This document shows positions 44,554-53,003 of a DNA stretch of 64,000 bases, in pieces. The DNA comes from Escherichia coli (lineage in GTDB: Bacteria; Pseudomonadota; Gammaproteobacteria; Enterobacterales; Enterobacteriaceae): NCBI RefSeq assembly GCF_013315695.1, contig NZ_CP054353.1, one strand, 5' to 3'. The position numbers and the translations under genes are program-made. Each line of letters opens with the position of its first letter. Within the stretch, counting starts at the first letter, position 1. The notes beneath the pieces were generated by a model, which was not told the DNA's origin, did not search any database, and was given only the letters and a program-made list of their open reading frames with translations.

Positions 44554-44582
44554 AAAACCCGCTTAATCAGCGGGTTTTTTTT
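44554..44582. terminator. Rho-independent terminator between convergent cspE and crcB, likely bidirectional
   Basis: aaaacccgc-ttaatca-gcgggtttt followed by a T-run of 8 or more; A-run on the 5' side. Confidence 0.8.
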
Positions 44583-46224: not shown

Positions 46225-46256
46225 AAAAAACCCGCTTCAAAAAGCGGGTTTTTTAT
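46225..46256. terminator. Rho-independent terminator between convergent tatE and lipA
   Basis: aaaacccgctt…aagcgggtttt followed by a T-run, with an A-run on the 5' side (bidirectional). Confidence 0.8.
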
Positions 46257-47458: not shown

Positions 47459-48412
47459 TCAAAATGCATTCCGGATAACATCTATTACCCCGTGCAGGAT
47501 GGGATCACGCAGGCTGAATTTGTTGTAGTGGATAGAGAAATCTATTTGCTCCTCATTTAAGGACGGAAAAGGCAGTTTTTCCAGCGGCCAGCAACGGCTA
47601 AACAGGTTATAAAAACGGCTGGGAATAATCGCTAACATGTCACTGTTGGCAACCAGTGCAGCGATTGTCAAAATGTTGTAGCTGGTGAAACTGATTTGCC
47701 GGTCCGGAAACATCTCTTGAACTCTCTGCCGCAGACCGCTGAAATTTTGCCCTTCCGGTAACAGGAGTATATGCGCAGCGTTGTCGATAGTCTCTCTGTC
47801 ATCTTCTAAAGAGAGTAGCGGATTTCCCTCGCGGCAAATTAACACCATATTGTCGGTGAACAGAACATGATGTTGCACCGTACGATTGGTGCAAAACATG
47901 TTATCGATGATGAGATCGGTTTGAAACTGACTGAGTTGGTTTTCCGCGTCGCTGATGGGTGGGTTGCGCAGTAAAAGCTGCGGATAGTGAGATTTAATCG
48001 CCCGATAGATGACAGGAAGGACTAGGGCTCCGACCGAGGGGGTGGTCGCAATAGTTATCGTTCGTTGCTTATCATAGCTTCCTTCGATATCCAGCGCGCC
48101 AAGAATGGACTCAAGGCCCTGACTGATATACTCATGTAGATGCATCGCAAATGCGGTAGGAGTGACACCCTGGCCTTTGCGAATAAACAATGGGTCAGGG
48201 AATATAACGCGCAGTTTCTGAATAGACTGACTGATTGCCGAGGGTGTCAGATTAAGCACTTTCGCTGCATTAACGATCCCTTTATGTACATATACAGCTT
48301 CAAAAATAGTCAGAAGGTTAAGATCAATATTTCGTAAGGTTGTAAATATTTGTGGTTTACCTTCTGACGACTTTCTGCTTAAACAGGTTTCAATTTGATT
48401 ATTACTATCCAC
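47459..48412 (-). CDS. ybeF: LysR-family transcriptional regulator YbeF
   Basis: 317-aa ORF with N-terminal HTH (…LNLLTIFEAVYVHKGIVNAAKVLNLTPSAISQSIQKLR…). Confidence 0.88.
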   Translation of the reverse strand: MDSNNQIETCLSRKSSEGKPQIFTTLRNIDLNLLTIFEAVYVHKGIVNAAKVLNLTPSAISQSIQKLRVIFPDPLFIRKGQGVTPTAFAMHLHEYISQGLESILGALDIEGSYDKQRTITIATTPSVGALVLPVIYRAIKSHYPQLLLRNPPISDAENQLSQFQTDLIIDNMFCTNRTVQHHVLFTDNMVLICREGNPLLSLEDDRETIDNAAHILLLPEGQNFSGLRQRVQEMFPDRQISFTSYNILTIAALVANSDMLAIIPSRFYNLFSRCWPLEKLPFPSLNEEQIDFSIHYNKFSLRDPILHGVIDVIRNAF

Positions 48413-48569
48413 GCACTTACTCCAATTTTATTCATGGAAAAATAATATTAAAAAAAATTACAATAATCTTATGTCTAATTGGAACGGAACGCTTTTGCTC
48501 ACCATAATCAACTATTTCAATAAGTTAATCAATGGGGTGAGTTACGGAGCAAGGCGTAGCATCGCATTT

Positions 48570-48578
48570 CTGCAAGTG
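48570..48578. repeat. Left copy of the 9-bp target-site duplication (ctgcaagtg) flanking IS1
   Basis: Identical 9-mer immediately outside each IS1 end. Confidence 0.85.
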
Positions 48579-48633
48579 GGTGATGCTGCCAACTTACTGA
48601 TTTAGTGTATGATGGTGTTTTTGAGGTGCTCCA

Positions 48634-48909
48634 GTGGCTTCTGTTTCTATCAGCTGTCCCTCCTGTTCAGCTACTGACGGGGTGGTGCGTAACGGCAAAA
48701 GCACCGCCGGACATCAGCGCTATCTCTGCTCTCACTGCCGTAAAACATGGCAACTGCAGTTCACTTACACCGCTTCTCAACCCGGTACGCACCAGAAAAT
48801 CATTGATATGGCCATGAATGGCGTTGGATGCCGGGCAACAGCCCGCATTATGGGCGTTGGCCTCAACACGATTTTACGTCACTTAAAAAACTCAGGCCGC
48901 AGTCGGTAA
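48634..48909 (+). CDS. insA: IS1 InsA (transposition repressor / N-terminal part of the InsAB' transposase)
   Basis: [94 protein letters not shown] start. Confidence 0.95.
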
Positions 48910-49331
48910 CCTCGCGCATACAGCCGGGCAGTGACGTCATCGTCTGCGCGGAAATGGACGAACAGTGGGGCTATGTCGGGGCTAAATCGCGCCAGCGCTG
49001 GCTGTTTTACGCGTATGACAGGCTCCGGAAGACGGTTGTTGCGCACGTATTCGGTGAACGCACTATGGCGACGCTGGGGCGTCTTATGAGCCTGCTGTCA
49101 CCCTTTGACGTGGTGATATGGATGACGGATGGCTGGCCGCTGTATGAATCCCGCCTGAAGGGAAAGCTGCACGTAATCAGCAAGCGATATACGCAGCGAA
49201 TTGAGCGGCATAACCTGAATCTGAGGCAGCACCTGGCACGGCTGGGACGGAAGTCGCTGTCGTTCTCAAAATCGGTGGAGCTGCATGACAAAGTCATCGG
49301 GCATTATCTGAACATAAAACACTATCAATAA
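48828..49331 (+). CDS. insB: IS1 InsB frame; the functional transposase InsAB' is made by a -1 ribosomal frameshift from insA
   Basis: 167-aa [67 protein letters not shown]…. Confidence 0.9.
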
Positions 49332-49346
49332 GTTGGAGTCATTACC

Positions 49347-49355
49347 CTGCAAGTG
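49347..49355. repeat. Right copy of the 9-bp target-site duplication (ctgcaagtg) flanking IS1
   Basis: Identical to 48570-48578. Confidence 0.85.
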
Positions 49356-49448
49356 ATAAAGAAAATAAACAAACGCGAAGGAGATGTAAAGCATTAGCAG
49401 GTATTATGAGTAATGACCCAGTGTAAATTGGGCCATTGATGTATGCAA

Positions 49449-50090
49449 TTAAGCGGTAATATATTCGAAGTCAGGATTGTTTAGTAGCGCTAAAATATTT
49501 TCCAGTAAACGCGGTGCAATATTATTAGTCGTCGCTTCGGGTTTCCATTGTGATATTTTAGCCATTTCCATTCCGGCATACCCACAAGGATTAATACGTA
49601 AAAATGGTGAAAGATCCATATTGACGTTTAATGCCAGACCGTGGAATGAACAACCGCGTCGAATACGTAAACCCAGTGAGCAAATTTTCTTTTCCCCGAC
49701 ATAGACACCAGGCGCGTCAGCCCGAGGATGCGCTTCTATACCCAGTTCAGCCAGGGTATTCACCACTGTTTGCTCAAGCAAGGTCACCAGTTCACGCACA
49801 CCGAGTTTACGGCGTTTCAGGTTAAGCAACACATACATCACCTGTTGCCCCGGCCCGTGATAAGTCACCTGCCCACCGCGATCGCTCTGAATTACCGGAA
49901 TATCACCCGGCATTAAAATGTGCTCCGCTTTTCCTGCCTGCCCTTGGGTAAATACCGGATAGTGCTCGACCAGCCAGATTTCATCAAGGGTACTTTCATC
50001 GCGGGTATCGGTGAATTCATGCATAGCCTGGGAGATTGGCTCGTAAGGCTGAAGACCGAGCTGGCGGACAAGAATTTTATCCTGATACAA
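49449..50090 (-). CDS. lipB: Octanoyltransferase LipB
   Basis: 213-aa [57 protein letters not shown]…. Confidence 0.93.
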
Positions 50091-50190
50091 AACGGCATCT
50101 CCGTGGAGAATGAGTAAAAGTGGGGGAAAAGTATATCACAGCGAGGAGAGGGGAGTTACCCGACCAGGAGCCGGGTAACGGAGAAGCGAG

Positions 50191-50454
50191 TTACAGAACC
50201 ATGCGGACAATATCGATTTTGCCCAGTTCTTCATACAGTGTTTCAACCTGCTCGATATGAGTAGCGTTGATAGTGATAGATACCGAGTGGTAGTTGCCTT
50301 TGCTGCTTGGTTTTACCGTTGGGGTGTAGTCACCTGGCGCATGGCGCTGTACCACTTCAACCACCTGATCAACCAGCTCAGGTAACGCCTGCCCCATAAC
50401 TTTGTAAGTAAAAGGAGTAGGGAATTCAAGCAGTTCGTTAAGTTTGGTTTTCAT
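50191..50454 (-). CDS. ybeD: UPF0250 protein YbeD
   Basis: 87-aa [90 protein letters not shown]. Confidence 0.92.
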
Positions 50455-50484
50455 GTCAGCTCCGGCGTAACGTAATTAAATAGC

Positions 50485-50512
50485 AACTCCCGCCAGAAGG
50501 CGGGAGTTTTTT
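50485..50512. terminator. Strong hairpin between dacA and ybeD; terminator-like on both strands, with the T-run perfect on the + strand
   Basis: aactcccgcc-agaa-ggcgggagtt followed by tttttt on the + strand; on the reverse strand it is followed by gctatttaatt. Confidence 0.6.
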
Positions 50513-50563
50513 ACTGATGCTTAGTATATGGGGACGGAAATTACACTTTCAAGTGTTCGATTT

Positions 50564-51775
50564 TTAACCAAACCAGTGATGGAACATTAATTTAATGTAA
50601 TCAATGATTTTGCCGAAGAAGTTGCCTTCCGGGATTTCTTGCAGCACAACCAGCGGGCGTTGTTCGATCGTTTTGCCATCAAGCTGGAAGTTGATAGTAC
50701 CGACGACCTGATTCTTTTGCAGCGGCGCATGCAATTCACTACTGTTCAGCACATAGCTGGCTTTCAGATCTTTCATGCGGCCACGCGGAATGGTCAGATA
50801 CACGTCTTTATCAACACCTAACGAAGCGCGATCAGAATCACCAAACCAAACCGGTTCAGAGGCGAACTCTTTACCTACTTTCAGTGGGTTAACGGTTTCG
50901 AAGAAACGGAAGCCCCAGGTTAGCAGTTTTTTACTTTCGGCTTCACGGCCTTTAAAAGTACGTCCGCCCATCACCGCAGAGATCAAGCGCATCTGGCCTT
51001 CAGTCGCAGAAGCAACAAGGTTGTAACCTGCTTTGTCAGTGTGTCCGGTTTTGATGCCGTCGACATTCAGGCTGTTATCCCATAACAGGCCGTTACGGTT
51101 CAGCTGGCGAATACCGTTAAACGTAAATTCTTTTTCTTTATAGATCGAGTATTCATTCGGTACGTCACGGATCAACGCCTGGCCGATCAGCGCCATATCT
51201 CGCGCGGAGCTGTACTGACCATCAGCATCCAGACCATGTACCGTCTGGAAGTGGGTATTTTTCAGGCCCAGTGCGTTAACGTAGCTGTTCATCAAGCCAA
51301 CAAAAGCGTCCTGGCTACCAGCGGCAAAATCGGCCATGGCGACACAAGCATCGTTACCCGATTGCAGGTTAATACCGCGGATTAGCTGAGAAACCGGAAC
51401 CTGCATGCCCGGTTTGAGGAACATTAGTGAAGAACCTTTAAACACCGGGTTACCGGTGGCCCATGCGTCGTTGCCGATAGTGACTAAATCAGTTTCTTTA
51501 AATTTACCGGCTTTCATTGCCTGGCCGATAACGTAACTGGTCATCATTTTGGTCAGGCTGGCAGGATCGCGGCGGACATCTGCGTTCTGTTCGGCGAGCA
51601 CTTTGCCGGAGTTATAGTCAATCAGGATGTAGGACTCCGCATCGATCTGCGGTACACCCGGGATCATAGTTTTGATATTCAGGTCATCGGCATGTGCAGC
51701 AGAGATAAAGGCTGTGCAAAGAGCCGTGGTGAGCGCCAGGCGCTTCATGATACGAGCGGAAAAAATGGTATTCAT
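50564..51775 (-). CDS. dacA: D-alanyl-D-alanine carboxypeptidase DacA (PBP5)
   Basis: 403-aa ORF with signal peptide; SxxK (SLTK), SGN and KTG motifs present. Confidence 0.95.
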
Positions 51776-51914
51776 GGTCTGAACTACGACATCCGTGATG
51801 GAATTAAAAAAAGTGCCCTACTATAGCAAATGCACTACCGGCAGGCATCTGACTTTCCGCGTGACTTTGTTAACGTCATTTACAGAAATTGACACATCAG
51901 ATGCCTGCTTTACG

Positions 51915-53003
51915 CTACTGCGCGGTGGTAATAAATGACTGTAATTGGGCTTCGGTTTGCAAACGTTGCTGCAAGGTACTGGCTTCGGCTTTGCTGGCGA
52001 ATGGGCCAAGCTGGATCCGCCAGACTGCGCCATTTTGAGTTACGCGACCGGGGACGCCGAACTTCTGTCCCAGTTGCTGTTGGTACTGTTGCGCACGAGC
52101 CTGATCGCTAACGGCCCCGACTTGCACCATAAAGTTGCCGCTGGCGCTTTGCGAGGCGGCTTGCGGTGTCACCATTGCAGGCGAGGTTGCAAGCGTTGTC
52201 GACGGAGCTGTAACAACGGGCTGTGGTGCAGGCGTTGGTTCGCTGCCTTCCAGAACACCAGGCGCTAAGGTCGTTGGTGCGCCGAGGAAACCGCTGCTGG
52301 TTACCGGCGCGCCAGTCGGATCTTCGCTTTTTAGCGTCGAATTACTGACCGGAAGAATGTCACCCTGCGGGCCAGACACTGAACTTGTTCCCGCGCCACC
52401 GCTTAAATCGGGAGGTGCAGGCAGGGCGTAAGTCTGTTTGGCAACTGTGGTACAAGCCATACCAGGACCAGAAAGCGAACCATCCTGGGCGACAATAATC
52501 GGATCGATACGAACTTTGGTGTTGTTTGACGTGTTAAGACGGTCAGCTGCCGCGCGAGAAAGCGAAATAACGCGGTCGTTGCCGTAAGGACCGCGATCAT
52601 TAATGCGCACCACGATCATTCGCCCGTTAGCCAGGTTAGTGATTCTGGCGTAGCTGGGGATCGGAAGCGTTGGATGGGCCGCCGTCAACTGTGTCGGATC
52701 GAAAGCTTCGCCAGAGGCCGTCAGGTTACTGCCGGGTTCGGCATCATAGATTGCCGCCAGTCCCGCCTGGCTAAATCGAGACGGATCCTGCACGATTTTG
52801 TAGCTTTTACCGTCGCGCTGGTAATCCTGATTTGCCGTCGCGTTCAGTGGTTCGAAACGCGGGTCCGCCCCGCTAATTTCAACTATGGGGCCGTTACATA
52901 CCGCAGGCTGCGGTACACTTACCGTCTGTTGCTGACCATCATCGCTTGTACATGCCGCGAGCATTCCTGCCGCGATGCAGATCCCGAGCCACTGCTTACG
53001 CAT
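51915..53003 (-). CDS. rlpA: Rare lipoprotein A RlpA (lytic transglycosylase with SPOR domain)
   Basis: 362-aa ORF MRKQWLGICIAAGMLAACTSDD… (lipobox), Pro/Thr/Ser-rich linker. Confidence 0.93.
   Translation of the reverse strand: MRKQWLGICIAAGMLAACTSDDGQQQTVSVPQPAVCNGPIVEISGADPRFEPLNATANQDYQRDGKSYKIVQDPSRFSQAGLAAIYDAEPGSNLTASGEAFDPTQLTAAHPTLPIPSYARITNLANGRMIVVRINDRGPYGNDRVISLSRAAADRLNTSNNTKVRIDPIIVAQDGSLSGPGMACTTVAKQTYALPAPPDLSGGAGTSSVSGPQGDILPVSNSTLKSEDPTGAPVTSSGFLGAPTTLAPGVLEGSEPTPAPQPVVTAPSTTLATSPAMVTPQAASQSASGNFMVQVGAVSDQARAQQYQQQLGQKFGVPGRVTQNGAVWRIQLGPFASKAEASTLQQRLQTEAQLQSFITTAQ

Follow-up and report, generated by a model that had tools for sequence, protein, structure and literature searches.

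The window analysed here, a 64,000-nucleotide stretch of Escherichia coli DNA, carries the genes lipB, ybeD, dacA and rlpA in that order, all on the − strand, and the spacer between dacA and ybeD contains a short G+C-rich inverted repeat, read on the + strand at 50485–50512 as AACTCCCGCC-AGAA-GGCGGGAGTT and then TTTT(AC). Coordinates in strain MG1655 are obtained by adding 612188 to those of the window (anchors: ybeD, 662379–662642; dacA, 662752–663963). The spacer differs from that of MG1655 at two positions over 141 nt, both of them outside the hairpin, and a 751-nt query around the hairpin matched 5424 of 5426 complete E. coli genomes. The features of the locus, with the basis of each in brackets, are the following.

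49449–50090, − strand: lipB coding sequence (open reading frames, RefSeq annotation)
50191–50454, − strand: ybeD coding sequence, DUF493 (open reading frames, RefSeq annotation)
50463–50460, − strand: ybeD Shine-Dalgarno sequence GGAG (sequence)
50471–50484, − strand: degenerate U-tract GCUAUUUAAUUACG (sequence, alignment with other genera)
50481, − strand: dacA transcript 3′ end, MG1655 662669 (SMRT-Cappable-seq, PMC6131387 Supplementary Data 1)
50485–50508, − strand: terminator hairpin, AACUCCCGCC-UUCU-GGCGGGAGUU as gene-strand RNA (sequence, folding, covariation)
50507–50512, + strand: T6 run, the complement of the gene-strand A6 tract at +7 to +12 of the ybeD mRNA (sequence)
50518, − strand: ybeD-lipB transcription start, base A, MG1655 662706 (SMRT-Cappable-seq operon table)
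50526–50553, − strand: sigma-32 promoter of ybeD-lipB (sequence, RpoH SELEX, sigma-32 ChIP)
50564–51775, − strand: dacA coding sequence, D-alanyl-D-alanine carboxypeptidase, PBP5 (open reading frames, RefSeq annotation)
51915–53003, − strand: rlpA coding sequence (open reading frames, RefSeq annotation)

The hairpin, which lies 56 nt past the dacA stop codon (50564), has a perfect stem of 10 bp with seven G-C pairs and a loop of 4 nt. The last two bases of the stem count among the six T residues of the + strand run. On the − strand, the tail that follows the stem, GCTATTTAATTACG, has five T in ten positions and a longest run of three, with only GCTATTTAATT there. The preliminary description of this DNA had drawn attention to a hairpin with a T-run on the + strand and a poorer T tail on the strand of dacA and ybeD, and this was confirmed. 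Folding gave −20.0 kcal/mol for the + strand (z = −4.0; 1 of 200 shuffles equally stable) and −21.1 kcal/mol in context for the − strand (z = −4.8; 0 of 200). A simple terminator scan called the hairpin in both orientations. The classical hairpin-plus-T-tail discriminant, an approximation that we recomputed with ViennaRNA energies, was likewise positive on both strands: it was +55 on the + strand, where the run is U6, and still +27 on the − strand, where the E. coli tail is UUGCUAUUUAAUU, with five U in ten and no U run longer than three.

Ten perfect hairpins of similar quality (at least 7 bp, of which at least five G-C) were found in the window. A positive discriminant on both strands was obtained for three of the ten, namely the cspE terminator (44554–44578), the tatE/lipA hairpin (46225–46254) and the dacA-ybeD hairpin, and the last is the only one of the three that sits between co-directional genes. 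Runs of six or more A or T number 63 in the window, and because there is only about one such run per kb, its position against the foot of the stem is not a matter of chance; terminators usually have such an A-tract/T-tract flank.

The assignment of the hairpin to the end of dacA, which the preliminary description had also made, is borne out by published transcript ends. SMRT-Cappable-seq lists, for both growth conditions (M9 and rich medium), a dacA transcript that runs from 664001 to 662669 on the − strand (PMC6131387), that is, from 51813 to 50481 in the window, and this end falls 4 nt past the foot of the stem and 6 nt past its G+C part. In one condition, the dacA start site accounts for 126 reads; 36 reads end at 662669, 17 extend beyond it by 50 nt or more, and 2 stop in the 50 nt that follow. 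The corresponding numbers in the other condition are 130, 29, 2 and 48 (PMC6131387). A dacA-ybeD-lipB read-through operon appears in the same table (PMC6131387). Taking the mapped end and the read-through reads together, we conclude that a genuine 3′ end, though a leaky one, lies at the hairpin on the gene strand, poor as the U-tract is. The list of curated Term-seq ends from Adams et al., which covers three conditions, has no − strand 3′ end at the hairpin; its sole entry between 661.9 and 662.9 kb of MG1655 is 662338(−), past ybeD, a strong 3′ end classed as primary for ybeD and the dominant end of the unit. A stem-loop, GUUACCCG...CGGGUAAC, lies between ybeD and lipB at this place (window 50155–50179, − strand; 3′ end at 50150), and it is followed by UCCCC and has no U-tract. 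The end at 662338 looks like the Rho-dependent or trimmed type that was described by Dar and Sorek.

The − strand between the dacA stop codon and the hairpin, aCTTGAAAgtgtaatttccgtCCCCATATactaagcAtcagtAAAAAA, contains a sigma-32 promoter that was absent from the preliminary description. Sigma-32 promoters conform to a consensus with the −35 element CTTGAAA, a spacer of 13–15 nt, the −10 element CCCCATNT and a start 6–8 nt downstream. Here, the −35 element CTTGAAA (50553–50547) is separated by 13 nt from the −10 element CCCCATAT (50533–50526), and the start at 50518 is the 8th base past the latter. The operon table of the SMRT-Cappable-seq study gives this start, 662706, for b0631|b0630 and marks it as the same as that in RegulonDB (PMC6131387). 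In RpoH genomic SELEX, the highest peak of the whole genome (20-fold) was located in the ybeD/dacA spacer (PMC5493296), and ybeD is a confirmed target of sigma-32 in ChIP (PMC2996942). Since the promoter and its start both lie upstream of the hairpin, the hairpin doubles as part of the ybeD leader: besides terminating dacA, it occupies +11 to +34 of the ybeD-lipB transcript.

Two further sites overlap this promoter. A sigma-70-like match (TTGAAA-18-TATACT, 10 of 12 positions; 50523–50552, − strand) has its −35 element in common with the sigma-32 promoter and might drive a basal level of ybeD transcription that begins at almost the same base. The other is a predicted CRP site, AAGTGTAATTTCCGTCCCCATA (50528–50549, − strand), which overlaps the spacer of the sigma-32 promoter. 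CRP did not bind the E. coli version and bound the Enterobacter and Klebsiella versions, which carry GTGTGA (PMC4398509); the GTGTGA form is also found in other Escherichia lineages (loci L003–L005).

To place the hairpin among its homologues, we used a scan for YbeD, which yielded 80 loci from distinct species; 70 species outside Escherichia have a homologous CTCCC...GGGAG hairpin. Within 14 nt past the stem, a T-run of at least five is present on the gene strand in 56 of these 70 species. The opposite strand has such a run in none of them and T4 in 11, and the T-tail score is greater on the gene strand in 65 of the 70. A sigma-32-like motif precedes the hairpin in 59 of the 70, and the order promoter, hairpin, T-tract, ybeD is kept in about 60 Enterobacterales species. 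In an alignment of 62 sequences, 96.8% of the cells of a nine-pair stem are paired (43–51% in slid controls), compensatory changes occur at six of the nine pairs, and the observed covariation was reached by no shuffle. This covariation supports a hairpin that is probably under selection. It is the pairing that is kept by the compensatory changes and not the sequence itself, and a protein-binding palindrome was rejected for this reason; a REP element was also rejected, judging from the letters. Read as gene-strand RNA, the wobbles of the core stem comprise five G-U cells versus one A-C cell, and the extended stem (of Klebsiella and Citrobacter loci, for example) has 24 G-T cells that would be A-C mismatches on the opposite strand. 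These wobble pairs favour the gene-strand RNA as the likely paired form.

The same alignment shows what has happened to the tail. In other genera, columns 39–41 are 95–100% T and columns 36–37 and 42–44 are 73–93% T; at columns 36 and 42–43, Escherichia carries C and AA, respectively. The sequence homologous to the degenerate U-tract of Escherichia is AUUAUUUUUUUACG in Salmonella enterica subsp. arizonae, and closely similar T-rich tails are present in Enterobacter and Citrobacter. The tail of the arizonae locus, ATTATTTTTTTACG, is equal in length to GCTATTTAATTACG of Escherichia, from which it differs by four substitutions, three of which cost a T in the latter. The leader 5′ of the stem is poorly conserved.

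The A-run that precedes the stem on the gene strand also differs between lineages. It is A0–A2 in Klebsiella and most Citrobacter loci, A4 in several loci that are most similar to Escherichia (GCATCAGTAAAACTCCC), and A4 at most in the 70 non-Escherichia species; E. albertii and one cryptic lineage have A5, and the window and MG1655 have A6. According to exact matches to an 80-nt probe in its A6 and A7 versions, 3380 of 5424 complete E. coli genomes (62%) have A6 and 1656 (31%) have A7, the other 388 differing otherwise. Among nine aligned Escherichia sequences, the A-run, the loop and a few positions in the promoter region are variable, and the tail and the leader past the stem are invariant. 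Such variation of the A-run is what one would expect of a slippage-prone homopolymer. The combination of a decayed gene-strand tail with an upstream A-run is specific to Escherichia. As to the loop, the E. coli strain 2020CK-00188 has the positions homologous to 50495–50498 reverse-complemented, so that its gene strand reads AGAA in place of TTCT, in an unchanged stem, which is either a template-switching inversion of the hairpin loop or an assembly artefact.

In our judgement, the element is probably the dacA terminator hairpin, which acts on the gene strand and lies inside the ybeD leader, and the + strand T-run is an incidental complement of the A-tract. The element would be a gene-strand device, a conserved stem-loop at which the dacA mRNA acquires its 3′ end. 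Polymerases that start at 51813 for dacA or at the heat-shock start 50518 would transcribe the G+C-rich inverted repeat; a fraction of them would stop, or have their transcripts trimmed, at about 50481, and the remainder would run on into ybeD-lipB. Most Enterobacterales have a canonical U-tract behind the hairpin on this strand; four substitutions in the Escherichia lineage would have degraded it from AUUAUUUUUUU to GCUAUUUAAUU, and the terminator would have become leakier. The A-tract before the stem, A4 in the closest genera, would have grown to A5–A7 by homopolymer slippage, and the T-run of the + strand would be its complement. Intrinsic terminators commonly have A-rich tracts upstream, and losing U content is an easy way for them to switch in evolution (PMC6061677). 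We infer that the decay of the tail raised read-through, which fits the read-through that is observed into ybeD-lipB, and that the A-run is neutral. The hairpin probably has a latent capacity to stop + strand polymerases, judged by the score of its sequence; nothing indicates that such stopping is used or selected. Three observations do speak against an incidental T-run: the + strand score is about twice that of the − strand (+55 versus +27), no other hairpin between co-directional genes in the window has a positive score on both strands, and at least 93% of the complete E. coli genomes retain T6 or T7, which could reflect selection rather than drift.

One alternative, possible although we doubt it, shares the incidental T-run but holds that the hairpin no longer terminates by itself in E. 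coli. Transcription would end further downstream, at a Rho-dependent site or at the stem-loop past ybeD, and 3′-to-5′ exonucleases would trim the RNA back to the hairpin, which would serve as a protective 3′ stem-loop. The gene-strand tail, with just UU before GC, would suit such a hairpin, as would the 48 reads that, in one condition, end in the 50 nt past the mapped end, compared with 29 at that end. The dominant Term-seq end also lies past ybeD, at the stem-loop that has no U-tract, and trimmed ends together with U-tract loss have been described (PMC6061677). On the other hand, the discriminant of the − strand is still positive, the distance of 6 nt between the G+C part of the stem and the 3′ end is in the usual range for intrinsic release, and the relatives retain a real U-tract. 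With the U-tract decayed in Escherichia, the mapped end may come from intrinsic release or from trimming; we lean somewhat towards intrinsic termination as its source.

Another hypothesis, which we regard as unlikely, is that the hairpin is chiefly a leader attenuator: polymerases that start at the sigma-32 promoter would come to a halt at about +38, a very short leader RNA would be released, read-through would be the regulated step, and the A-tract would be part of the leader. The conserved order of promoter, hairpin, T-tract and ybeD across the sampled Enterobacterales families speaks for such a device, and a product of 38 nt would escape long-read sequencing. Full-length ybeD-lipB RNAs that start at 662706 are seen, however, and the Term-seq list has no 3′ end at the hairpin. 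In addition, no anti-terminator fold was predicted for the leader, whose sequence 5′ of the stem is the poorly conserved part, and the hairpin persisted in silico from 30 to 50 °C. An RNA thermometer was rejected as well, the hairpin remaining folded over this range and making no contact with the Shine-Dalgarno sequence.

The preliminary description had proposed that the hairpin is a bidirectional terminator that also stops antisense transcription, and the comparison with other genera goes against this proposal. In its functional form, the hypothesis is that the element was selected in Escherichia against antisense polymerases that arrive via lipB and ybeD, shielding the sigma-32 promoter and dacA while it still ends dacA. 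The + strand does have a canonical stem with U6–U7, the higher score, a call in the simple scan that is matched on the other strand, and a run of T6 or T7 throughout most of the species. The run of T5–T7 is nevertheless restricted to Escherichia, and the 70 other species with the same gene order and hairpin lack it (none with an opposite-strand run of five or more), so that the two flanks are not conserved together. The run also varies in length, as a neutral homopolymer would. Transcription of dacA and ybeD, which are co-directional, does not converge on the element; bidirectional terminators reportedly occur mainly between convergent genes (Ju et al., 2019).

Evidence for + strand transcription was sought in several ways. 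The curated Term-seq list for the three conditions has no + strand 3′ end between 661.9 and 662.9 kb of MG1655, an absence of the kind that the preliminary description had named as grounds for refutation, and this absence is weak evidence because the list also misses the − strand end at the hairpin; it may reflect a lack of + strand transcription in the three sampled conditions. The Term-seq tables have no Rho-termination region on either strand in the same interval. No consensus + strand promoter was found antisense to ybeD and lipB (49500–50485), the only promoter-like site nearby being a chance-level match of 9 of 12 positions at 49436–49465. This strain carries a complete IS1 of 768 bp at 48579–49346 on the + strand, with insA/insB on that strand and a 9-bp target duplication (ctgcaagtg). 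It lies 102 bp past the lipB stop codon, reads towards lipB, and is absent at the same place from MG1655 and from strain MS 21-1, the closest complete genome (100% over the 751-nt query). In principle, IS1 might send antisense transcripts to the hairpin, and this strain could thereby supply the read-out that a bidirectional terminator would stop. As an explanation of the T-run, IS1 was rejected, the insertion being specific to the strain and the T-run species-wide. On balance, we consider a functional bidirectional terminator unlikely.

A more radical version, to which we give little credence, is that Escherichia has switched the polarity of the terminator: the sense U-tract was degraded, and the expanded A-tract now makes an efficient antisense stop. 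If this were true, polymerases initiated at dacA and at the sigma-32 promoter would be let into ybeD-lipB, and the strongest sigma-32 promoter of the genome would be insulated from head-on traffic such as that from the IS1 downstream of lipB.

The other suggestion of the preliminary description, that an unannotated + strand transcript (a small RNA or an antisense RNA of ybeD) ends at the hairpin and T-run, is very improbable: solely the shape of the + strand sequence speaks for it, and against it stand the lack of a promoter and of a Term-seq end just described, the absence of any Rfam family in a scan of 48000–53000 at E ≤ 1, a literature search that returned no report linking ybeD with antisense RNA and nothing relevant for ybeD and terminators, and the absence of the T-run outside Escherichia. 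A small RNA gene on the + strand would be expected to have its own promoter, a discrete transcript, and conservation or a known family. The sole predicted small RNA here, Ssr5 of Shigella (dacA/ybeD), is on the gene strand; this purely computational candidate, which is not marked positive in the RT-PCR column, was rejected.

We return to the dacA terminator on the gene strand. An intrinsic terminator of that strand should present a stable G+C stem-loop, a U-rich tract of about 7–8 nt right behind the stem, an RNA 3′ end within the tract, and release that needs neither Rho nor other factors; the stem-loop and the mapped end are present here. The dacA terminator is an ordinary one that had been mapped before, and its asymmetry is cosmetic and specific to one lineage; the finding is of small importance, concerning a mapped dacA end beside a well-known heat-shock promoter. 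Its more general point is that a terminator may show a 'perfect' T-run on its unused strand simply as the complement of the common upstream A-tract, and that such a run should not be taken to indicate an unannotated transcript. As a natural example of the decay of a U-tract in one genus, with the hairpin still under selection, the locus is also a clean one.

Compared with known systems, the dacA hairpin most resembles an intrinsic terminator with an upstream A-tract: it has a G+C stem-loop, a T/U-rich flank on one side and an A-rich flank on the other, and a 3′ end a few nt past the stem, and the dacA-ybeD elements of most Enterobacterales are textbook terminators on the gene strand. The Escherichia element departs from this type in that its gene-strand U-tract is degraded (GCUAUUUAAUU), its better-looking orientation is unused, and it lies downstream of the promoter of the next gene. 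Bidirectional terminators, as reportedly described by Ju, Li and Liu in Nature Microbiology in 2019, have an A-tract on one side of a symmetric hairpin and a T-tract on the other, and each strand then reads as a stem plus a U-run. In the same window, the tatE/lipA hairpin between convergent genes (46225–46254), AAAAAACCCGCTT-caaa-AAGCGGGTTTTTT with T6 on both strands, is a textbook case. The dacA-ybeD element differs in its co-directional genes, one weak tail, a + strand T-run that is not conserved, and no documented + strand 3′ end. The protective 3′ stem-loops of Rho-dependent transcripts likewise combine a stable stem-loop, a poor U-tract and a precise steady-state 3′ end, and evolutionary switching through loss of U content has been proposed for them (Dar and Sorek, 2018; PMC6061677); they typically have no upstream A-tract, whereas the dacA hairpin has one. 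Finally, CTTGAAA-N13-CCCCATAT of ybeD fits the same consensus as sigma-32 (RpoH) promoters such as those of dnaK and htpG. The ybeD promoter is unusual among them in having a terminator hairpin 10 nt past its start, and the ybeD-lipB heat-shock transcript must therefore traverse the terminator of the preceding gene almost as soon as it is begun, an arrangement that has been kept across Enterobacterales.
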